Shown here: piece by piece, positions 1 to 42,714 of the stretch
Numbering within the stretch: the first letter of the stretch is position 1
How the letters are laid out: each line of letters begins with the position of its first letter
From: Hyphomicrobium sp.
GTDB taxonomy: Bacteria > Pseudomonadota > Alphaproteobacteria > Rhizobiales > Hyphomicrobiaceae
Direction of reading: 5' to 3'
Length of the DNA stretch: 64,000 nt
Assembly: GCF_019744875.1 (NCBI RefSeq)
Contig: NZ_JAIETU010000011.1
Span: forward strand, 10,723 to 74,722
Translations under genes and position numbers: made by a program
Notes under the pieces: model-generated
Database searches by the model: none
What the model was told of the DNA's origin: nothing
Seen by the model: the letters and a program-made list of their open reading frames with translations, nothing else

Positions 1-176
1 CGCACGGCGAGGCGCACGTCGTCGGACGCGTCCGGGTAGACGCGTGCGAGCATCGCAGTCATGCGCTGGCCGTAGAAGAGCTCGGCGGGCACGCTGGCGC
101 CGCCGTCCGAGATCAGGTTCGGATCGCGGGCGTTCGCTTCGTCGATCAAGGCATAGGCGGTTTCGAGGTTGGTCAC
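1..176 (-). CDS. DUF4202 family protein, 3' end cut by window edge
   Basis: Minus-strand translation from GTG at 176 reads VTNLETAYALIDEANARDPNLISDGGASVPAELFYGQRMTAMLARVYPDASDDVRLAV. This matches my recollection of the DUF4202 N-terminal pattern. GGAG lies 6 nt upstream. Confidence 0.55.
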   Translation of the reverse strand, partial: MTNLETAYALIDEANARDPNLISDGGASVPAELFYGQRMTAMLARVYPDASDDVRLAV

Positions 177-211
177 GCGCGGCTCCGCTGCGATGGCCCG
201 TGTAGCGCGCG

Positions 212-565
212 CTACAGCGGTCCGTGGAAAATGAAGTAGGCGCCGCCAATGATCAACCCGAAGCCCAGGACGTGATTGATCGTCAGCGGCTCCTTCAGGA
301 AAAAGACCGAGAATCCGGCGAACACCACGAGGGTGATGACCTCCTGGATCGTCTTGAGCTGGGCGGTTGAGTAGTACTCATGGCCGATCCGATTGGCCGG
401 GACGGCGAGGCAGTATTCGAAGAAGGCGATGCCCCAGCTCACGAGTACGACGATCCACAGGGCGGTCGTTTTGTACTTCAGATGCCCGTACCAGGCGAAT
501 GTCATGAAGATGTTCGAGACGAGAAGCAGCAGCACCGGCGTAAGTGCATTCGACAGTCCTGGCAT
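212..565 (-). CDS. DMT-superfamily small membrane protein (DUF486-like), 117 aa
   Basis: Only the C-terminal third of track ORF 212..1288 looks like a protein (MPGLSNALTPVLLLLVSNIF...GGAYFIFHGPL). It has four hydrophobic helices and an ATG at 565. Confidence 0.6.
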   Translation of the reverse strand: MPGLSNALTPVLLLLVSNIFMTFAWYGHLKYKTTALWIVVLVSWGIAFFEYCLAVPANRIGHEYYSTAQLKTIQEVITLVVFAGFSVFFLKEPLTINHVLGFGLIIGGAYFIFHGPL

Positions 566-742
566 CGATCCCCGTGCCTCCGCGATAGGGTTTGAGACAG
601 TGCAGCCCGGGCAGGGCTTCGCGCTTTTCATTAAGGCAAGCTGCCGTTCCTGTCTCGACAGTCCACGGCAATTGGCTATTACTGTGCGCGGCCTGGCCTG
701 CCGCCGAGACGCGGGGGGCGGTTCGACGGCCGATCGGGGCGA

Positions 743-1291
743 ATGGATATGTCGCGTCACCAGCTCGATGCATTGATGGCCGGCGTCGCCCGAGGCGACG
801 AGGCGGCCTTTGCCGAGCTGTATCAGGCAACTTCCGCGAAACTCTACGGTGTCGCCCTGCGTATCCTTCGCAGCAAGGAGGCTGCGGAGGACGTGGTTCA
901 GGATAGCTTTTTCAAAGTCTGGGAGCGGGCAGGGGATTTCGATCCCAAGTTGGCCGGACCTGTGACGTGGATGGTCGCCATCGTCCGGAACCGGGCGCTC
1001 GACGAGCTTCGGCGCCGCGCCGCGCGGCCGTCGTCGGATGTGTCCGAGCTTGACGACCTGCCGGGCGACGACGAGCATCCGATCGAGGCGATCGGCCGGC
1101 GCGAGGATTTCGACCGGCTTCTCAAGTGTCTGGAAGGCCTGGAGCCCGACAAGCGCCAGATGGTGCGGCTCGCCTATCTGGACGGCCTGAGCCGGGAGGC
1201 GCTCGCGCAGCGGTTCGACCGGCCCGAGGGTACGATCAAGACGTGGCTGCATCGCAGCCTGGCGATGTTGAAGGGATGCCTCGAGCAATGA
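743..1291 (+). CDS. ECF (sigma-70 family) RNA polymerase sigma factor
   Basis: Region 2 motif DVVQDSFFKVWE and region 4 motif LAYLDGLSREALAQRFDRPEGTIKTWLHRS. Its stop overlaps the next gene's start (ATGA). Confidence 0.9.
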   Translation: MDMSRHQLDALMAGVARGDEAAFAELYQATSAKLYGVALRILRSKEAAEDVVQDSFFKVWERAGDFDPKLAGPVTWMVAIVRNRALDELRRRAARPSSDVSELDDLPGDDEHPIEAIGRREDFDRLLKCLEGLEPDKRQMVRLAYLDGLSREALAQRFDRPEGTIKTWLHRSLAMLKGCLEQ

Positions 1292-2004
1292 GCGAGCTCG
1301 ACAACATCGATGGACTGGCGGCCGAGTATGTTCTCGGAACGCTGACGCGCGCCGAGCGTGCGGAGGCGGAGACGCGCCGGGCGCAAGACGCGGCGCTCGA
1401 CACGGCGATCCTGGCCTGGGAGCGGCGGCTTGCGCCGCTTGCCGATGTCGTGGCGCCCGTGACGCCGCCGGCCGGGCTCTACAACAAAATACGCGCCCAG
1501 ATCGGGCTCGCTTCGCATGTCGTATCGCTCAAGGCGCGCGAGCAGGCGATCACGCGGCGGGCCAGCCGGTGGCGCGCGGCAACGGCGGGCATGACGGCGC
1601 TGGCGGCATCGCTCGCGGGCGTTGTCGTCTGGCAGGATCATCAGCAGCGTCTGATGCCGACGCAGTATGTGGCGGTGCTGCAGGCGGGCGAGTCCCTGCC
1701 GGGCTTCCTGCTGACGGTCGATACCAAAACCAACATGTTCGTCATCTCGGCGATGCAGAAGCCGACGGAGCCGGAGAAGTCGTACCAGCTCTGGCTGGTA
1801 CACGATGGCATGCCGCAACCGAAATCGCTCGGCGTGTTCGACGACAGCGAGATGGATGTGCGGCCGATGCCCGGCGGCAAGGACCACGACATGTACATGG
1901 ACGCCACCTATGCGGTGAGCGTGGAGCCCAAGGGCGGTTCTCCCACGGGCGCACCGACGGGGCCGGTCGTGTTTTCCGGAAAGCTCGTCAAGGCGACGCC
2001 CTGA
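1288..2004 (+). CDS. Anti-sigma factor, RskA-like (one TM segment, periplasmic C-terminal domain)
   Basis: N-terminus LAAEYVLGTLTRAERAEAE, a central TM segment (AATAGMTALAASLAGVVVW), and C-terminal YQLWLV...PKSLGVF...AVSVEPKGGS typical of anti-sigma-K type. Translationally coupled to the sigma gene. Confidence 0.8.
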   Translation: MSELDNIDGLAAEYVLGTLTRAERAEAETRRAQDAALDTAILAWERRLAPLADVVAPVTPPAGLYNKIRAQIGLASHVVSLKAREQAITRRASRWRAATAGMTALAASLAGVVVWQDHQQRLMPTQYVAVLQAGESLPGFLLTVDTKTNMFVISAMQKPTEPEKSYQLWLVHDGMPQPKSLGVFDDSEMDVRPMPGGKDHDMYMDATYAVSVEPKGGSPTGAPTGPVVFSGKLVKATP

Positions 2005-2077
2005 GTTTGGCCGCATTGATTTGCGCGGCCTGAATCCAAACGGCTTTTCCGGATTACGATTTTAAATCTCGCTGATT

Positions 2078-2105
2078 TGAAACCGCCGCGATCGACGCGC
2101 GTAAT
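2078..2105 (+). promoter_or_regulatory. Candidate ECF-type promoter (TGAAACC-N15-CGTAAT)
   Basis: AAC at 2081-2083 and CGT at 2100-2102 are separated by 16 nt, about 92 nt upstream of the precursor ATG. Motif match only. Confidence 0.35.
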
Positions 2106-2196
2106 AACGGACATGCTTCTGCTGTCCGCAGCCCCCCGGGGACGGGAAGCGCCATGACTTTCAAAAGTCAGGGAGGTTTCATGAAAGGAAACGCCT

Positions 2197-2463
2197 ATGA
2201 AGATTTCAGTCTCGTCGGGTTCCGCACTGGCTGCCGCTGCTGCTGCGCTTCTCCTCTCCGGCGCCGTCGTGGCCCCGAGCTTCGCTGCTGAAGACGCCAA
2301 GGGCCACTGCGTTGGCGGTAACGCCTGCAAGGGCACGAGCGCCTGCAAGACCGCGACCAACGCTTGCAAGGGTCAGAACGCCTGCAAGGGTCAAGGCATG
2401 AGCGAAACCTCGAAGGACGATTGCGCGAAGATCGACGGCGCGAAGTTCGAGCCCGCGAAGTAA
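2197..2463 (+). CDS. bufA: Secreted six-Cys repeat peptide, bufferin-type (BufA2-like) RiPP precursor
   Basis: Sec signal peptide (…VVAPSFA/AEDAKG). The core GHCVGGNACKGTSACKTATNACKGQNACKGQG…DDCAKIDGAKFEPAK has six Cys. It sits directly upstream of DUF692 and DUF2063 genes. Confidence 0.8.
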   Translation: MKISVSSGSALAAAAAALLLSGAVVAPSFAAEDAKGHCVGGNACKGTSACKTATNACKGQNACKGQGMSETSKDDCAKIDGAKFEPAK

Positions 2464-2477
2464 TCGCCAGAAACGGT

Positions 2478-2502
2478 GTCCGGCGGCGCGTTGCCGCCGG
2501 AC
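2478..2502 (+). terminator. Perfect 10-bp GC hairpin between precursor and MNIO gene (attenuator or partial terminator)
   Basis: GTCCGGCGGC-GCGTT-GCCGCCGGAC followed by TTCATTTG, 15 nt after the precursor stop codon. Confidence 0.55.
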
Positions 2503-2578
2503 TTCATTTGCCGGCTGTTACGTGACAGCTTGTTCGGGGCCGCCTGTTCGAAGATACGTGTTCGAAGGATGTGATGCG

Positions 2579-3460
2579 ATGCATGCCGAGACGCAGGGCC
2601 GCGAGAAAAGCACCGCCATACGCCGTGACAAGCCGCCGTATCTCGGCTTTGGGCTCGGTCTCCGGCCGCAGCATTATCAGGACATTTTCGATACGGCGCC
2701 GAACATCGACTGGTTCGAGGTGGTGTCGGAAAACTACATGGTGGCGGGCGGCAAGCCGCTGCAGATGCTCGACCGGATCCGCGCCGATTACCCCATCGTC
2801 ATGCACGGCGTGTCGCTGTCGATCGCATCGACCGCACCGGTGAATATGGACTATCTGCGGGATCTCAAGGCCCTCGCCCGGCGCAGCGAGCCGGTGTTCA
2901 TTTCCGATCACCTGTGCTGGACCGGTGTGCATGGCGTCAACCTGCACGATCTCCTGCCGGTGCCGTATACGCGCGAGGCGCTCGATCATGTCGTGGCGCG
3001 CGTGCAGCATGTGCAGGACTATCTGGGCCAGGCCATCGCGCTCGAAAACGTTTCGAGCTATGTGCAGTTCTCGCATTCGGAAATGAGCGAATGGGAGTTC
3101 ATCGCGGAGTTGACGAAGCGCACGGGCTGCTGGCTGGTGTTCGATGTCAACAACGTGTTCGTCTCTGCGTTCAATCACGAGTTCGACGCGCACAAGTTCA
3201 TTGCGGGTATCCCCAAGGATCGCATTGTTCAGTTCCATCTCGCGGGGCATGAACACAACATGAGCCACATCGTCGACACGCACGACGCGCTGGTGTGCGA
3301 CGAGGTGTGGGATCTCTACCGTTCGGCCGTGCGTCAGTTCGGGCAGGTATCGGCGATTATCGAGCGGGACGATCACATTCCGCCGCTCGCGGAGCTGGTG
3401 GCCGAACTCGACATCGCGCGCCGGGTCGCCGCCGAGACGCTCCGCGACGCCGCAGAGTAA
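2579..3460 (+). CDS. bufB: DUF692 / MNIO family (multinuclear non-heme iron oxidative) enzyme, BufB-like
   Basis: LGFGLGLRPQHY…IDWFEVVSENYM…ISDHLCW…ALENVSSY…HLAGH are hallmark DUF692 (UPF0276) motifs. ATG at 2579 is preferred over GTG at 2522. Confidence 0.9.
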   Translation: MHAETQGREKSTAIRRDKPPYLGFGLGLRPQHYQDIFDTAPNIDWFEVVSENYMVAGGKPLQMLDRIRADYPIVMHGVSLSIASTAPVNMDYLRDLKALARRSEPVFISDHLCWTGVHGVNLHDLLPVPYTREALDHVVARVQHVQDYLGQAIALENVSSYVQFSHSEMSEWEFIAELTKRTGCWLVFDVNNVFVSAFNHEFDAHKFIAGIPKDRIVQFHLAGHEHNMSHIVDTHDALVCDEVWDLYRSAVRQFGQVSAIIERDDHIPPLAELVAELDIARRVAAETLRDAAE

Positions 3461-3470
3461 TGGTGCCGTC

Positions 3471-4280
3471 ATGACAGGGCGCGCGCCCACGCTTGCAGAC
3501 GTGCAGAGCTTGTTTCAGGCGGCTGTCGTCGATGGGTCGGACGATGTGCTGGGGCTGATCCCCGGCAATTCCCGCACCAGCAGCGATGTGTTGTTCGGCG
3601 TTTACCGCCATGCCTACGTGGCGCGTCTGGTCGAGGTGGTGCAGAACGCGTATCCGATACTGGCTGCGCATATGGGAGACGCGCGTTTCAAGGACATGGC
3701 GCGCGCGTATGTGGCGCTTTATCCGTCTCGCCACACGAATGCGCGCTGGTATGCGTCGGACGTGCCGGACCTGCTCGGACGGCCCGAGTATGCAGAGACG
3801 CCGGAGCTGCGCGAGATTGCGTTGATCGAACGGCAGCTCGATCTTGCGTTCGATGCAGCCGACGGCGCGGTGCTTGACCTTGCGGCGCTGGGCCGCCATC
3901 AGCCGGAAACGTGGGGTTCACTTGTGTTTCGCCCGCACCCTTCTGCGGCGGTGCTCAGGCTTTCCACCAATGCTTATGAGATCTGGGCGGCGCTCAAGAA
4001 CGACGCCGTCGCGCCAGACCCGGCGCGGCTTGCGGATCCGCATGCGGTTCTGATCTGGCGGCGCGAGGGCGTGGCCACGTCGCGTGTGCTCGGGGCCGAG
4101 GAAGCGATGCTGTGGATCGAAGCTTCGCGCGGAAAGCCTTTTGGTGGGCTCGCGGAGATGGCGGCGGTATTCGCCGATGCGGACATGGCGGCGCTACGCG
4201 TGGCGCAGTACCTTCAGGGCTGGCTCGTGTCGGGATTAATCAGTGAGGCCGACGTCCACGAGCTGACGGCGACGTCTTAG
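3471..4280 (+). CDS. bufC: DUF2063 domain protein, MNIO partner (BufC-like)
   Basis: N-terminus LQSLFQAAVVDG…VYRHAYVARLVEVVQNAYP…FKDMARAYVALYPS is typical of DUF2063. It follows the DUF692 gene after 10 nt. Confidence 0.85.
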   Translation: MTGRAPTLADVQSLFQAAVVDGSDDVLGLIPGNSRTSSDVLFGVYRHAYVARLVEVVQNAYPILAAHMGDARFKDMARAYVALYPSRHTNARWYASDVPDLLGRPEYAETPELREIALIERQLDLAFDAADGAVLDLAALGRHQPETWGSLVFRPHPSAAVLRLSTNAYEIWAALKNDAVAPDPARLADPHAVLIWRREGVATSRVLGAEEAMLWIEASRGKPFGGLAEMAAVFADADMAALRVAQYLQGWLVSGLISEADVHELTATS

Positions 4281-4323
4281 AAGGCAGCGGCCTCTCCCCA
4301 TTCAGAGAAGAGGCCGCCAACAA

Positions 4324-5064
<741 letters not shown>

Positions 5065-5144
5065 CTGCGGTCTCCGTAGTAGGCTTCTCGACAGTCGCCC
5101 GTATCTCGAGGCGGGGTCAGGCGATATATAGCGACCCGTCACTG

Positions 5145-5171
5145 CAACGCCAATCGCGGCGACATGGTTCA
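5145..5171 (-). promoter_or_regulatory. Candidate ECF-type promoter upstream of the SOD gene (TGAACC-N16-CGTTG)
   Basis: Minus strand reads TGAACCATGTCGCCGCGATTGGCGTTG. AAC to CGT spacing is 17 nt. It shares GCCGCGAT with the spacer of the 2078-2105 motif. Confidence 0.3.
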
Positions 5172-5199
5172 TCACTGGGTACAAGGCGAGCACGGATCA

Positions 5200-5934
5200 A
5201 TGGGGCTTCGGCTCGACAAGGCGCTGCTGGCGCGAGGTTTGGCGCCGACCCGCTCGCGGGCGCGGGACCTCATCCTGCGCGGCGCAGTGCGTGTAAACGG
5301 CGCGATCTCCTCCAAGGCGGGAACGGTCGTGGCCGACGGGGCGGAGATCGCGCTGACGGAGACGTTCGACTATGTGTCGCGCGGGGCGCTCAAGCTGATC
5401 GCGGCCCTCGATGCCTTCGGCTTTTCGGCCGAGGGGCGCGTGGCGCTCGATGCAGGTGCGTCTACGGGCGGTTTCACGGAGGTGCTGCTGGAGCGTGGGG
5501 CGGCGCATGTGTTCGCTGTCGATGTGGGGCGGGGCCAGCTCCATCCGCGCATCGCCGCCGACGCCCGTGTCACGTCGCTCGAAGGAATGGATGCGCGGGC
5601 GCTGACGGAGCAGGAGATCACGCGACGTGTCTCGGCAATCGTGGCCGACGTGAGTTTCATCTCGCTCGAAAAAGTGCTGCCGGGCGTGCTGCCCTTCGCG
5701 GAGCCGGGGACGTGGCTTGCGGCGCTCGTCAAGCCGCAGTTCGAGGCGGGCCGAGAGGCGATCGGCAAGGGCGGCATCGTGCGCGATGCGGCCGTGCGCG
5801 ATGCGCAGGCCACGAAGATGTCCGATTGGATGGCCGCGCAGCCGGGATGGCGCGCGGTGGGGGTGATCCCGTCGCCGATCGAAGGCGGGTCGGGCAATCA
5901 GGAGTTTCTACTTGGAGCCGTTTTCGATGGCTGA
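5200..5934 (+). CDS. tlyA: TlyA family rRNA 2'-O-methyltransferase (hemolysin A-like)
   Basis: S4 domain (RLDKALLARGLAPTRSRARDLI) plus FtsJ-type methyltransferase motif (LDAGASTGGFTEVLLERGA). Confidence 0.85.
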   Translation: MGLRLDKALLARGLAPTRSRARDLILRGAVRVNGAISSKAGTVVADGAEIALTETFDYVSRGALKLIAALDAFGFSAEGRVALDAGASTGGFTEVLLERGAAHVFAVDVGRGQLHPRIAADARVTSLEGMDARALTEQEITRRVSAIVADVSFISLEKVLPGVLPFAEPGTWLAALVKPQFEAGREAIGKGGIVRDAAVRDAQATKMSDWMAAQPGWRAVGVIPSPIEGGSGNQEFLLGAVFDG

Positions 5935-7153
5935 TGCCGTCAAGCTGACCATCGAGCGCGTCGGCGCAAAGGGACACGGCATCGCCATGCGCGATGGCGA
6001 ACCGGTCTATGTGCCGTTCGCGCTGCCGGGCGAAGCCTGGGCGCAGAACGCCGGGGCGTGGAGCCTGGCGTCAGATGCGAACCCCGAACGTGTTTCGCCC
6101 GTCTGCCGTCATTTCATGCAGTGCGGCGGGTGCCTCACGCAGCATATGTCGCCCGCGGCCAACCGTGCCTGGAAGCGCGACCTCGTCGTCGATGCATTCC
6201 GCCATCGCGGTCTCGATGCGGAGGTCATGCCGGCGGTGGTGGTCGGCGCGGCGTCGCGGCGGCGGGCGTTTCTGGGTGTCGAGCGGCGTGGACGCGAGGT
6301 GATCATCGGCTTCCGCGAGGAGGGGCAGCACACGCTCGTCGATCTTTCCGAGTGTCCGGTGCTCGACCCCGCTATCGTGGCCGCCGTGCCGGGGCTGCGC
6401 GAGATCGCCAAGCGCGTGATGGTGGACCGGGAGGGCGGGCGTCTCGTCGTGACGCGGCTCGATCATGGTCTCGATGTATCGTTCGACAACGGGCGCAAGG
6501 ATCTCTCGGCGCACGAGCGCTCGACTGTTGGGGCGCTCGCCGAAACCATGCGGCTGCTGCGGCTCTCCGTTGGCGGCGAGGTGATCGTCGCGCGCGGGCC
6601 GCCGGTCGTGACGATTGCGGGCGTGGCGGTGACAGTCGAACCGGGGCTGTTCCTGCAGGCCGTGCCCGAAGCGGAGACGCTGCTTGCGGATCTCTGCGTC
6701 GCGGCGCTGCCGAAGCGGCTCAAGACGGCCGCGGATCTCTTCTCAGGCGTGGGGACACTGACGCTGCCTCTCGCGCGGCGTGCGGCCGTGACGGCCTACG
6801 ACAGCGACAAGCGGGCAATCTCATCCCTCGCGAACGCGGTGCGCCATGCGCAGGGACTGAGGCCCGTGGCGGCTATCGTGCGCGATCTCTATCGCGATCC
6901 GCTTTCGGTGCGGGAGCTCAATGCGTTCGATGCCGTGGTGTTCGATCCGCCGCGCGCGGGCGCGGCCGAGCAGGCGGAGCGGCTGGCGAAATCGAAGGTA
7001 CCCGTGGTAATGGCCGTGTCGTGCAATCCCGCGACGCTGGCGCGGGACGCGCGCACGCTGATCGACGGGGGCTATCGGATGGGACCGGTCACGCCGATCG
7101 ACCAGTTCCTGTACTCCGCGCACGTCGAGGCATTCGCCGTGTTCCGGCGTTGA
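5927..7153 (+). CDS. Class I SAM-dependent RNA (uracil-5) methyltransferase, TrmA/RlmD family
   Basis: N-terminal TRAM-like region, Cys cluster CRHFMQCGGC, and C-terminal DLFSGVGTLTLPLA…FDPPRAGA…VSCNPATLARD. Its start overlaps the tlyA stop. Confidence 0.8.
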   Translation: MADAVKLTIERVGAKGHGIAMRDGEPVYVPFALPGEAWAQNAGAWSLASDANPERVSPVCRHFMQCGGCLTQHMSPAANRAWKRDLVVDAFRHRGLDAEVMPAVVVGAASRRRAFLGVERRGREVIIGFREEGQHTLVDLSECPVLDPAIVAAVPGLREIAKRVMVDREGGRLVVTRLDHGLDVSFDNGRKDLSAHERSTVGALAETMRLLRLSVGGEVIVARGPPVVTIAGVAVTVEPGLFLQAVPEAETLLADLCVAALPKRLKTAADLFSGVGTLTLPLARRAAVTAYDSDKRAISSLANAVRHAQGLRPVAAIVRDLYRDPLSVRELNAFDAVVFDPPRAGAAEQAERLAKSKVPVVMAVSCNPATLARDARTLIDGGYRMGPVTPIDQFLYSAHVEAFAVFRR

Positions 7154-7192
7154 TGCGGTCAGCCCGGAAGCCGGGTCGAGCCGAGAGAATCG

Positions 7193-7360
7193 TTACGCCG
7201 AAGCCTTGGCCTTAGCGGCGCGGGCCTTGCCGGCCTGCTTCTTGGCGCGGGTGCGGGCGGCGCCCGTGTTGCCCAGCGAGCGCGTGACCTTCGGGCGCGG
7301 AATGGCGCGGCGGGCCTTCTTCTTCTGGGTCTCAACCTTGCGGTGATGGCGGGCGGTCAT
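7193..7360 (-). CDS. Small highly basic protein, 55 aa (below the ORF-track cutoff)
   Basis: MTARHHRKVETQKKKARRAIPRPKVTRSLGNTGAARTRAKKQAGKARAAKAKASA. High GC3, with AAAGGGA upstream of the ATG. Confidence 0.4.
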   Translation of the reverse strand: MTARHHRKVETQKKKARRAIPRPKVTRSLGNTGAARTRAKKQAGKARAAKAKASA

Positions 7361-38084: not shown

Positions 38085-38345
38085 ATGAAATCAGTTGTTC
38101 GTATCGCAGCACTTGCTCTGAGCCTCGGCGCGCTGTCGCTTCCCGCGTTTTCGGCCGATGATCACGGGCATTGCTCGGGCGCAAATGTCTGCGCCGGTGA
38201 CGCTGCTTGTGAAAAGCAGGGCTACAAGGAGCTGACGAAGGACGAGTGCTCCAAGATCGACGGCGCCAAGTTCGAGGCTTCCTCGCATGAGGGCGAAGGC
38301 CACAAGGACGGCGATCACTCCAAGCACGACCACGACAAAAAGTAA
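38085..38345 (+). CDS. Orphan paralog of the bufferin-type precursor: four Cys, His-rich C-terminal tail
   Basis: Signal peptide (…SLPAFS/ADD). GHCSGANVCAGDAACEKQGYKELTKDECSKIDGAKFE aligns with 2197-2463. Tail is SSHEGEGHKDGDHSKHDHDKK. GGAG lies 8 nt upstream. Confidence 0.75.
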   Translation: MKSVVRIAALALSLGALSLPAFSADDHGHCSGANVCAGDAACEKQGYKELTKDECSKIDGAKFEASSHEGEGHKDGDHSKHDHDKK

Positions 38346-38422: not shown

Positions 38423-38683
38423 ATGCAAAAACTAGTCTGCCTTCTATTTGCAGGCTTCGTCTTTTCTCTCAGTCCGGCATCGGCGAATGTCGGCTCAGGC
38501 CTGCTCGCCAAGGCGTCCAGCCTCGACCGCGGTGTCACCGAAGGGCAGGTGCTTGAGATACGCCATCGCCACCGGCACTGGCGGCGGCATCATCACCATC
38601 GGAGATGGGGGCACCGCCATCATCGTCGGCACTGGGGGTTCAAGCTTCACCGGCGCCATCATCATCATCACCGCTATCATTGA
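38423..38683 (+). CDS. Secreted peptide with extreme His/Arg/Trp-rich C-terminal tail
   Basis: Signal peptide MQKLVCLLFAGFVFSLSPASA/NV. Tail is RHRHRHWRRHHHHRRWGHRHHRRHWGFKLHRRHHHHHRYH. GGGAG lies 8 nt upstream and a hairpin follows the stop. The tail frame is ambiguous (see findings). Confidence 0.45.
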   Translation: MQKLVCLLFAGFVFSLSPASANVGSGLLAKASSLDRGVTEGQVLEIRHRHRHWRRHHHHRRWGHRHHRRHWGFKLHRRHHHHHRYH

Positions 38684-40482: not shown

Positions 40483-42714
40483 TCAGAACGAGACCTTGGT
40501 GCGCACGCCGTAGGTCGCCGGGTCGCCGAGCGCGCCATAGGCGCCCACGCCGCCGGTTCCGGCGAAGTCGTAGGAGTTCACCACGTAGCGCTCGTTGAGG
40601 ATGTTGCGGCCGAAGAAGGCGATGTCCATGTCGCCGTACTTGAAGCCGAGCGTCGCGTTGAGAAGCGTGACGCCCTTCTGCTTCGAGGCATTGGCTTCGT
40701 CGAGGTAGTAGTCACCCAGCGTGCGGGCATCGACAAGCAGGTAGCCGCCCCAGTCGGCCCGGTACTCGAAGCCATAGTTCGTTGTGAACGAGGGAATGAA
40801 GCTGACCTCGTTGCCGCTGAAATCGGCGTAGTCATTCACGAACTCGCCGAAAGTCGCATGCGTCACGCCGAGCCCGCCGAAGAGGCGGAGCTGGGACGTC
40901 ATCTGCAAGCTCGCCTCCAGCTCGCCGCCGTAGCTTTCGACGCGCTCAGCATTATTGACGCCGAACTCCGACGGGCTGAACTGGTTCAGCACCTGATAGT
41001 TCTCGGTGTCGGAATAGAAGAGCGAGCCGTTGAGGGCGAGGAAGCGTCCGAACGGCCGGCTCTTGAAGCCGATCTCGTAGTTGTCCGAGGTTTCTTCGTC
41101 GAAGCGGAACTCGTTGATGTCGGTCAGCGCGCGGTCGGCGATGAAGCCGCCCGGCTTGAAGCCGCGCGCATACTTCGCATAGGCCGTGAAGTTCGAGGTC
41201 GGCGCATAGAGCAGCGCAATCGAGGGCAGAACCTTCGCATAGTCCTTCTCGGCTTCTGCGATAAAGGGAGCTGGATGCGCGTTTTCTCCCTCGCGCCCTG
41301 CCCACTCGTAGCGCATGCCGGGGACAATGGTGAAGCCGCCGCCGAGCCCGTAGCGCAGCTCGCCGAAGACGGCGACGTCGTCGCTGGTCGTCTTGGCGTG
41401 CCGCAACGGCATGCCGGGAATTTCGATGTCGGGATAGAGCAGTGTGCCGCCGTCGAAATCCATGACGGTGTGCGCGGCGAAGACGCCGGCCGACCACTGA
41501 AGCTGCGCCGAGGGATCGTTCGACGTGAGGCGTACTTCCTGCGTCAGCGAGCGGACCTCCTCTTCCGAGTAGCCGATGTAACGCCACATCGGATCGGGAA
41601 TGGCCGTCTGGTCGCCGTCGTTGTGGAAGTCCCATGTCGAGCGGCGGTTTGCCGTGACCGACAGGATGTCGAACGTGTCGAAGCGGCTTTTGATGCGCAG
41701 GGCCTGCAGGTCCTGGCCGATGCGCTCCTTGCCGGGATCGTTATAGGTGACGTCGAACGGGGCGGTGGCAAGCTGCGCGAACGGAATGAACGGATCGCTC
41801 TGGTCGTCAAAGCGCTCGTGCTGCAGGATGAAATCGATGGTCGTGCGGCTTGTGGGCACGATGGTGAGCTTCGCCCGGCCGCCGTAGGATTCCTTGTCGC
41901 CGTAGGGCTCGTTCAGGGCGGTATTGTCATAGAAGCCGTCGCGCTTCTGGCCGATGAAGTCAGCGGTCAGGAAGGCGGAGCTTGAGCCGAGCGGCGTCGA
42001 GAAGCCTGCGCCGGCCTCGTACGCGTCGTAGTTTCCGGCCGATCCTGTGACGTAGCCGGTTGGCTTGTCGGTTGGGCCGCCCGTCTGGATGTCGATGACG
42101 CCTGCCGGGCGGCTGAACCCGAACGATGTGCTCTGCGGTCCCTTGAGCACGTTGATCTGGTCAACGCGCGTAAACATTGAGGCGCGGGCCAGTGTCGTCA
42201 GCGCGGGGATGTCATCCACGTAGTAGCCGACGCCGGGAACGACGCCAGGGGACGACTGGTAGCCAAGCTCGTGCACGCCGCGGATCGAGAAGGTCGGCAT
42301 GCGGTTGCCGCCGGAGTCGAAGCCGGTGACGTTCGGGAACGATTGGGCAAGATCGCGCGCGGTGCTGAGCCCGCGTGTTGCGACCTCGTCTCCGGTCATG
42401 ACGGAGACGCCCGAAGGAACATTCGCAAACTCGGCAGTGGCCTGCGAAATGCCATCCGCGGGTGGTTTAGCGGCGGGCGGAGGCTGGGGCTGCGGCGCGG
42501 TCGCAGCGACTGGCTGCTCAAGTGCCTTCTTTTGCGCCGCGGGTTTCTTCGCCTTCTTGGCGGTGACGCTCAGAGGCGGCAGATCATACGTCTCGTTGGC
42601 GTCCGCCGGCTTGGCGGCCTGCTGGGCCACAGCTTCTCCGGCGGCCACGACGGCGCAAGAAACGGCATATGCCAGAACGCAGGCCATTCGGCCCGATGCG
42701 AGAAAAGCGGTCAT
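40483..42714 (-). CDS. TonB-dependent siderophore receptor
   Basis: Signal peptide, Pro/Ala-rich linker, plug (SGVSVMTGDE…FSIRG), barrel, C-terminal YGVRTKVSF. Confidence 0.9.
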   Translation of the reverse strand: MTAFLASGRMACVLAYAVSCAVVAAGEAVAQQAAKPADANETYDLPPLSVTAKKAKKPAAQKKALEQPVAATAPQPQPPPAAKPPADGISQATAEFANVPSGVSVMTGDEVATRGLSTARDLAQSFPNVTGFDSGGNRMPTFSIRGVHELGYQSSPGVVPGVGYYVDDIPALTTLARASMFTRVDQINVLKGPQSTSFGFSRPAGVIDIQTGGPTDKPTGYVTGSAGNYDAYEAGAGFSTPLGSSSAFLTADFIGQKRDGFYDNTALNEPYGDKESYGGRAKLTIVPTSRTTIDFILQHERFDDQSDPFIPFAQLATAPFDVTYNDPGKERIGQDLQALRIKSRFDTFDILSVTANRRSTWDFHNDGDQTAIPDPMWRYIGYSEEEVRSLTQEVRLTSNDPSAQLQWSAGVFAAHTVMDFDGGTLLYPDIEIPGMPLRHAKTTSDDVAVFGELRYGLGGGFTIVPGMRYEWAGREGENAHPAPFIAEAEKDYAKVLPSIALLYAPTSNFTAYAKYARGFKPGGFIADRALTDINEFRFDEETSDNYEIGFKSRPFGRFLALNGSLFYSDTENYQVLNQFSPSEFGVNNAERVESYGGELEASLQMTSQLRLFGGLGVTHATFGEFVNDYADFSGNEVSFIPSFTTNYGFEYRADWGGYLLVDARTLGDYYLDEANASKQKGVTLLNATLGFKYGDMDIAFFGRNILNERYVVNSYDFAGTGGVGAYGALGDPATYGVRTKVSF

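Follow-up and report, generated by a model that had tools for sequence, protein, structure and literature searches.

A 64,000-nucleotide stretch of the genome of a Hyphomicrobium sp. (contig NZ_JAIETU010000011.1, positions 10,723 to 74,722; here called the window) carries a five-gene locus in which an extracytoplasmic function (ECF) sigma factor and its membrane anti-sigma factor directly precede bufA2, bufB and bufC, the genes of a Buf2-type bufferin. Bufferins are secreted, cysteine-modified, copper-binding peptides, a family described in 2024; their 5-thiooxazole chemistry was generalised later, and the class was named captophorins (PMC13097082). Our analysis indicates that the Buf2 operon is probably the cargo of the sigma/anti-sigma cassette, which is of the SigK/RskA type. 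The new element is this regulatory module, a Buf2 operon as putative SigK/RskA cargo. The biosynthetic core adds nothing new, and the NCBI annotation models would already name a bufferin cluster. An earlier, sequence-only reading of the same DNA had described the family as almost unexplored, which is out of date in view of at least eight papers from 2024 to 2026 and of the NCBIfam equivalog models.

The five co-directional genes of that reading are all present as same-strand open reading frames (ORFs) in our ORF check, encoding a sigma factor, an anti-sigma factor, a peptide, an MNIO enzyme and a DUF2063 protein (Table 1). They include the RskA-type anti-sigma factor and the 88-residue, six-cysteine Sec peptide that it had described, as well as the ATGA overlap (caATGAgc) between the start of the anti-sigma gene and the stop codon of the sigma gene. 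The bufB frame is open from 2522 to 3460, and its likely start is the ATG at 2579, which is preceded by an AAGGA Shine-Dalgarno sequence.

Table 1. Features of the bufferin locus, in positions of the window.
Feature	Position	Strand	Evidence
Housekeeping-type promoter candidate, TCGACAG-N13-GCTATTAC, for the sigma/anti-sigma operon	655..682	+	Conservation
ECF sigma factor, SigK type, 182 aa	743..1291	+	Sigma70_r2 and Sigma70_r4_2; Cys pair C129/C179
GAAAC-N17-CGTA inside the sigma coding sequence, codons 32-41	838..863	+	Codon conservation
RskA-type single-pass anti-sigma factor, 238 aa	1288..2004	+	RskA_C; NF052375
ECF-type promoter (predicted), TGAAAC-N16-CGTA, 119 nt upstream of bufA2	2078..2103	+	Motif scan and conservation
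bufA2, Buf2-type bufferin precursor, 88 aa	2197..2463	+	NF050166
GC-rich hairpin, 11 bp, then TTCATTT, between bufA2 and bufB	2478..2502	+	Folding energy
bufB, MNIO (DUF692) bufferin maturase	2579..3460	+	NF050167; PF05114
bufC, DUF2063/HvfC-type partner with RRE-like C-terminal half	3471..4280	+	PF09836; structure model
Hairpin GGCCTCT...AGAGGCC between the convergent bufC and superoxide dismutase genes	4289..4315	.	Read directly from the sequence

On sequence grounds the core is a canonical Buf2 bufferin biosynthetic gene cluster (BGC), an ordinary member of a known family, because the BufA2 and BufB equivalog models match above their cut-offs, the ligand positions of the enzyme are invariant and the fold of BufC matches. 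The peptide scored 86.4 bits against NF050166 (BufA2 family periplasmic bufferin-type metallophore; cut-off 60), and 3486 BufA2 homologues were found. Its signal peptide (residues 1-30) was recognised by inspection from K2 in the n-region, an Ala/Leu h-region and SFA|AE at the -3/-1 positions, all conserved in 23 homologues. The 58-residue core that follows holds six cysteines (C38, C44, C50, C57, C63 and C76), every one of them invariant in the same sample. The MNIO enzyme matched NF050167 (MNIO family bufferin maturase BufB) with 380.4 bits against a cut-off of 310, and PF05114 (MbnB_TglH_ChrH) with 371 bits. The second-best NCBIfam match was the HvfB model, at 266 bits and under its cut-off of 360; the ApyH, MbnB and ChrH models each stayed under their own cut-offs. 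Nine positions (H76, H111, E156, D189, N192, H220, D233, H235 and E262) are invariant across 65 BufB sequences, and the nearest solved structure is that of the DUF692 protein 3BWW. The spacing of the nine agrees with what we take to be the tri-iron ligand set of MbnB. For BufC the match to PF09836 (DUF2063) reached 61.7 bits, and a confident structure model (predicted local distance difference test score, pLDDT, 88.7) retrieved, in Foldseek, the DUF2063 protein NGO1945 (3DEE, E 3e-6) and also TglI (8HCI_A). The C-terminal half of this model matched the RiPP recognition element (RRE; RiPP, ribosomally synthesised and post-translationally modified peptide) proteins TbiB1 and 6JX3_B with a Foldseek probability of 0.97-0.98. 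Searches of PDB sequences with BufC and with the anti-sigma factor gave no matches.

The profile searches that had been proposed for the locus thus gave significant matches for the enzyme pair and for BufA2, and none at E <= 0.01 in the peptide for DUF2282, the Buf1-type precursor family. The reading of the three genes as a bufferin-type precursor with its MNIO and DUF2063 partners is upheld by the BufA2 and BufB equivalogs, by PF09836 and by the BufC model. One might still suppose that the peptide is an unmodified, disulfide-rich secreted small protein and that the MNIO and DUF2063 genes act on something else. Many BufA-type genes do lack an adjacent MNIO gene, and a second copy in the window, at 38085, is an example. 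Here, however, equivalog-level bufA2 and bufB lie side by side in the canonical bufA2-bufB-bufC order, an order that over 60 loci share, the MNIO has kept its ligand positions and BufC has an RRE-like domain. We regard an unmodified product as hardly credible.

The regulators differ in kind from those published for bufferins, which are SigF/NrsF in Caulobacter and RpoQ/RsqA in Cupriavidus. The best solved match of the sigma factor is SigK of Mycobacterium tuberculosis (4NQW, E 3.9e-24), both redox cysteines of which align with C129 and C179; against the NCBIfam SigK subfamily it scored 130.9 bits, under the cut-off of 226. The anti-sigma factor matched RskA_C (PF10099) with 77.4 bits and NF052375 with 107.8 bits (cut-off 100). 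Its periplasmic domain is without cysteine; M189 and M204 in it are invariant, and M194 is nearly so. Two NrsF queries gave no tblastn match in the 64-kb window, and the anti-sigma factor itself matches RskA_C and not NrsF. The pair is, by these matches, of the SigK/RskA type and not of the SigF/NrsF type known for bufferins, the SigK type being assigned from the best solved match, the Cys pair and the RskA_C partner. The adjacent ECF/anti-sigma pair had been put forward as a difference from the characterised bufferins, and it is a real one that can now be stated more specifically as SigK/RskA against SigF/NrsF. A 2025 survey reported sigma and NrsF genes in Buf1 BGCs and none in Buf2 BGCs, and our literature search did not find RskA named together with bufferins or MNIOs. 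A Cys pair makes the SigK/RskA system sensitive to redox state; the signal that induces it in mycobacteria has, according to published work, yet to be found. A DipZ-type protein is said to belong to the SigK regulon of M. tuberculosis.

The arrangement is not due to chance, since it recurs in 15 of 80 genome loci and in every metagenome locus with a sigma factor at least 60% identical to that of the window. The genome scan took one genome per species and returned the 80 nearest Buf2 loci, mostly from Hyphomicrobium and relatives, which we grouped by their neighbours. Class A has the gene order sigma, anti-sigma, bufA2, bufB, bufC; ten of its loci place this set next to an orthologous DMT6 gene (in the window, a DMT_6, or DUF486, gene on the opposite strand upstream of the sigma gene), and five are built in the same way with an additional gene for a 600-residue DUF255-thioredoxin protein and a second bufA2. 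About 20 loci have SigF/NrsF beside the Buf2 genes, often with DoxX in a divergent operon (class B), 14 have thioredoxin/CcdA or DUF255-thioredoxin genes beside them (class C), and 31 have none of these neighbours (class D). The second scan, of metagenomes with the anti-sigma alignment, gave 80 SigK/RskA loci with sigma identities of 36-84%; all six of those at or above 60% carry Buf2 genes. Buf2 also lay directly downstream of the three anti-sigma orthologues that were looked up. With 15 SigK/RskA and about 20 SigF/NrsF loci among the 80 nearest, Buf2 loci often include a regulator, which can be of either of two interchangeable types.

Several variations among these loci were recorded. The sigF-nrsF pair stands beside Buf2 in L014-L019, L023, L025, L029, L031, L033, L036, L044, L051, L055, L060 and L068; doxX often comes after it, and its orientation is often divergent with respect to bufA2. 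These SigF/NrsF-adjacent loci in Hyphomicrobium relatives contrast with the absence of such genes from Buf2 BGCs in the 2025 survey. A thioredoxin and CcdA/DsbD_TM pair is inserted between bufA2 and bufB in L028, L034, L047, L052, L057 and L064. A DUF255 (Thioredox_DsbH) protein of about 600 residues lies ahead of one or two bufA2 genes in L009, L010, L020, L021, L041, L043, L050, L067, L078, L090 and L104. The last of these is a distant cassette (positions 3081-7314; sigma 48% identical) that combines a DUF255-thioredoxin (TrxDsbH) protein with a 97-residue, six-cysteine BufA2-like precursor and has no MNIO; an OsmC/Ohr-like ORF, judged by eye from its translation, comes next.

The promoter evidence supports a link between the cassette and the operon. 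The TGAAAC-N16-CGTA element upstream of bufA2 is the only exact match on either strand of the window. In 47 of the 80 Buf2 loci the 450 nt ahead of bufA2 contain GAAAC-N15-17-CGTA on the sense strand, compared with a mean of 0.34 (maximum 3) in shuffled controls and 3 on the opposite strand; in the adjacent class-A loci the motif is present in 11 of 11, in the form TGAAAC[C/T]-N16/17-CGTA. The SigK/RskA family survey gave the same picture from the side of the regulators. The motif follows the rskA stop codon within 300 nt in 23 of 75 loci (shuffle mean 0.19), with the consensus TGAAAC[C/T]-N16/17-CGTA[A/G]CT, into which the site in the window fits. The cargo behind this post-rskA motif is varied, and comprises the bufA2 operon, a DUF255-thioredoxin gene with bufA2, and genes for secreted fasciclin, DUF7282 and DUF4394 proteins. 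The fasciclin proteins are of the same type as Mpt83, a member of the SigK regulon in mycobacteria. The DUF7282 proteins (L121, L126, L137, L144, L145, L148 and L150) and the DUF4394 proteins (L108 and L115) appear to be single-gene cargo.

A second copy of the motif lies within the sigma gene itself, about 90 nt into the coding sequence, in the window and, down to about 40% identity, among the family loci L086-L165. Across 17 sigma orthologues the amino acid is invariant in 64 columns, but the codon is the same throughout in only four of them. K33=AAA and R40=CGT belong to these four; both codons are rare in these genes, and they supply the wobble bases of the internal motif. Of the 55 SigK-like sigma genes with their 5' part on the contig (identities of 36-84%), 50 have the motif at this position. 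It has the look of an internal promoter, or of a binding site for RNA polymerase, common to the whole family, and in the window it may serve as an internal promoter of the anti-sigma gene and so provide negative feedback. Because of this codon test and the SigK/RskA family survey, we rate it likely that the local sigma factor drives bufA2.

A number of observations weigh against this picture of the locus, and several of them point to one alternative, namely that SigK/RskA is only a syntenic neighbour with a regulon of its own and that bufA2BC is read by a SigF/NrsF-type sigma factor encoded elsewhere. This is the case in Caulobacter, where sigF-nrsF lies beside buf1 and controls buf2 in trans. 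About 15 loci with SigF/NrsF as the neighbour, and 12 with no sigma gene nearby, also have a GAAAC-N17-CGTA motif ahead of bufA2, and the Caulobacter SigF site, GTAACC-N16-CGAA, resembles the motif in the window, with one base different in each element; the latter could therefore be read by a SigF-type factor whose gene lies outside the window. All class-A loci with a sigma factor at least 60% identical represent a single orthologous locus of one clade (Hyphomicrobium and relatives), so that synteny alone could reflect descent and not function. For C. metallidurans the -35 consensus of ECF18 is given as GCATCC, which differs from GAAAC, and the sigma genes of the window and of its closest relative, L001, have no ECF motif upstream. 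The AlphaFold model of BufA2 (from a 23-sequence alignment; pLDDT 52) was too poor for use. On the other side, the form found in the window (T before GAAAC, C or T after it, N16 and CGTA[A/G]) is the post-rskA form of distant cassettes with unrelated cargo, whereas the SigF-adjacent loci, like the sigma-less ones, use GAAAC[G/A]-N17-CCGTATCAG. In addition, a copy of the motif lies within the SigK-type sigma gene, where selection acts on it at the level of codons. That the window has no NrsF homologue counts for little, as it covers only a small part of the genome. We also considered separating the local sigma factor from a SigF acting in trans by class-specific promoter features alone and judged these too weak, because the class-A loci with the thioredoxin insert use the GAAACG-N17 variant. 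Taken together, control by a SigF-type factor from elsewhere appears quite unlikely, and control by the adjacent SigK-type factor is preferred.

The sigma/anti-sigma operon has a different kind of promoter candidate. An ECF motif precedes the sigma gene in 7 of the 15 class-A loci. The block at 655-682 is the only strongly conserved one in the otherwise diverged DMT6-sigma intergenic region of class A, and from its sequence we infer a housekeeping-type promoter that would provide sigma and anti-sigma factor constitutively. It resembles what we take to be the Caulobacter sigma-73 consensus, TTGACGS-N10-14-GCTANAWC. A generic scan of positions 400-5400 for E. coli-type sigma-70 promoters gave no promoter and did not flag this block.

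The following sequence of events would account for these features. The sigma factor and its membrane anti-sigma factor would be made constitutively from the housekeeping-type promoter, and an envelope signal, probably copper or a related thiol-oxidative stress, would inactivate RskA or act on the SigK Cys pair and so free the sigma factor. Comparative evidence suggests that the freed factor would read the TGAAAC-N16-CGTA element at 2078-2103 and transcribe bufA2BC, and that it would also read the motif copy in its own gene, yielding more anti-sigma factor and hence negative feedback. The hairpin past bufA2 may limit read-through, so that more precursor than enzyme is made. BufB, an iron enzyme, would then act in the cytoplasm with the RRE-bearing BufC and oxidise C44, C50, C57 and C63, which lie in N/S-A-C-K repeats, to 5-thiooxazoles. 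This step is proposed by homology with Caulobacter Buf2, in which each of the four central cysteines shows a shift of -4 Da and Cys I and VI are unmodified and probably form a disulfide (PMC11626156). Export by Sec, signal peptidase cleavage after SFA30 and a C38-C76 disulfide would follow, with an expected net shift of -18 Da, and the 58-residue product would chelate copper in the periplasm. The conserved motif in the sigma gene points to a directly testable feedback loop.

The part given to copper in this sequence has an alternative. The peptide could be a bufferin chemically and yet serve, or be triggered by, another thiophilic metal or envelope thiol/redox stress. The redox sensitivity of SigK/RskA through its Cys pair speaks for such a role, as do the thioredoxin/CcdA or DUF255-thioredoxin genes embedded in related Buf2 loci, a Fe/Mn superoxide dismutase with a twin-arginine signal that is a conserved convergent neighbour, and published reports that MerC-bufferin fusions exist and that Cr and Cd induce the SigF regulon. 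Copper, however, is the metal bound by the bufferins and related thiooxazole peptides characterised so far, and bufA2 of Caulobacter is induced by Cu and not by Fe, Zn or Mn. We consider a role or trigger other than copper unlikely, although it retains a real share of our expectation, and continue to favour copper. A broader proposal is tentative and less likely than not: SigK/RskA cassettes may be sensors of envelope copper or thiol stress in general, the Hyphomicrobium clade having swapped fasciclin for Buf2 as the cargo and the sigK-internal promoter providing feedback family-wide. SigK/RskA is widespread, and a member whose output is a copper-binding peptide would be a tractable, non-pathogenic system for testing copper or envelope thiol stress as the signal.

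The absence of DoxX had been taken as a second distinguishing feature of the locus. The absence itself stands for the 64-kb window, in which two DoxX queries gave no tblastn match, but it does not set the locus apart. It is normal for Buf2, because the founding Caulobacter buf2 operon has no doxX either, and DoxX is not needed for Buf1 modification (PMC11626156). Among relatives, doxX lies 3' of bufC in L003-5, L084/85 and L086-88 and is absent from the window, L001, L002 and L008, where the superoxide dismutase gene follows directly. As close relatives have doxX and the window does not, this lineage probably lost it recently, as a dispensable gene. No doxX remnant was seen 3' of bufC, where only 43 bp separate its stop codon from the convergent superoxide dismutase gene. 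This neighbour (4324-5193, minus strand) encodes a Fe/Mn-type enzyme that carries the twin-arginine signal RRSFLR and is therefore probably periplasmic; it is conserved in the convergent position in L001-5, L008, L084 and L086-88. Its upstream region showed no ECF motif. The hairpin in the 43-bp interval is likely a bidirectional terminator.

The hairpin region between bufA2 and bufB has a folding energy of -37 kcal/mol over a 76-nt stretch (z -3.6). Hairpins of unrelated sequence also lie 3' of bufA2 in most related loci, which suggests a candidate partial terminator or transcript stabiliser favouring an excess of precursor. The bufA2 leader contains a further stem, CATGCTTC...GGGAAGC at 2113-2152, the sequence of which is kept in the six closest loci; among these six there is no covariation or compensatory change, and the stem has no Rfam match. 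An Rfam scan of positions 1-6000 gave no match.

The window holds one other bufferin-like gene, at 38085-38345 on the plus strand. It encodes an 86-residue secreted peptide with only four cysteines and the His-rich tail HEGEGHKDGDHSKHDHDKK. This peptide shares 46% identity with the two ends of the BufA2 core and scores 27 bits with the BufA2 model, under the cut-off of 60. The gene has no adjacent MNIO and no GAAAC-CGTA motif upstream. Among 1.8 billion proteins, only 18 cluster representatives match the peptide, some of them giant proteins in which the domain is repeated 12-13 times in tandem. The next ORF (38423-38683, plus strand) encodes a secreted, His/Arg-rich protein of 86 residues, and a TonB-receptor-like ORF, identified from its translation alone, occupies 40483-42714 on the minus strand.

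It is instructive to set the locus beside four known systems. With HvfABC/oxazolin and fontiphorin it shares the pair of an MNIO and a DUF2063 protein and, by analogy, would share the thiooxazole chemistry and a copper-related role. The precursors of those systems have EGKCG-type repeats, whereas that of the window has the six-Cys Buf2 domain, and BufB falls under the cut-off of the HvfB model. The Buf1/gig loci with adjacent ECF16 regulators (sigF-nrsF-buf1ABCD in Caulobacter and rpoQ-rsqA/gigPABT in Cupriavidus metallidurans) are alike in that a bufferin BGC stands beside a dedicated ECF sigma factor and a membrane anti-sigma factor; these loci respond to metal stress. They differ in having a four-Cys DUF2282 precursor and DoxX, where the window has a BufA2 precursor and no DoxX, and in their anti-sigma factor, which is a six-transmembrane-segment NrsF (DUF1109) with periplasmic Cys sensing in place of the single-pass, Cys-less RskA type.

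The closest match for the core is buf2 of Caulobacter vibrioides (BUF_6/12Cys; CCNA_02999-03001), an operon that is induced by copper and protects against it (PMC11626156). Both loci encode a Sec precursor with six conserved cysteines, a BufB MNIO and a BufC DUF2063 protein, both are without DoxX, and both have an ECF-type promoter, predicted in the case of the window; the expected product, four thiooxazoles and one disulfide, would also be the same. In C. vibrioides, however, SigF/NrsF is encoded at another locus, whereas the SigK/RskA-type pair of the window lies directly upstream in the same orientation, and close relatives of the window locus add doxX, a DUF255-thioredoxin gene or a second bufA2. 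For the regulators, the nearest relatives appear to be SigK-RskA of M. tuberculosis and Yersinia (ECF18/19), judging by the closest sigma factor, the pair of cysteines equivalent to C133/C183 and the co-transcribed rskA-type anti-sigma gene. In distant SigK/RskA relatives the same motif past rskA precedes a fasciclin (Mpt83-like) gene, and the cargo of M. tuberculosis SigK is the fasciclin genes mpt83/mpt70; in the window, the corresponding place is taken by a RiPP operon.

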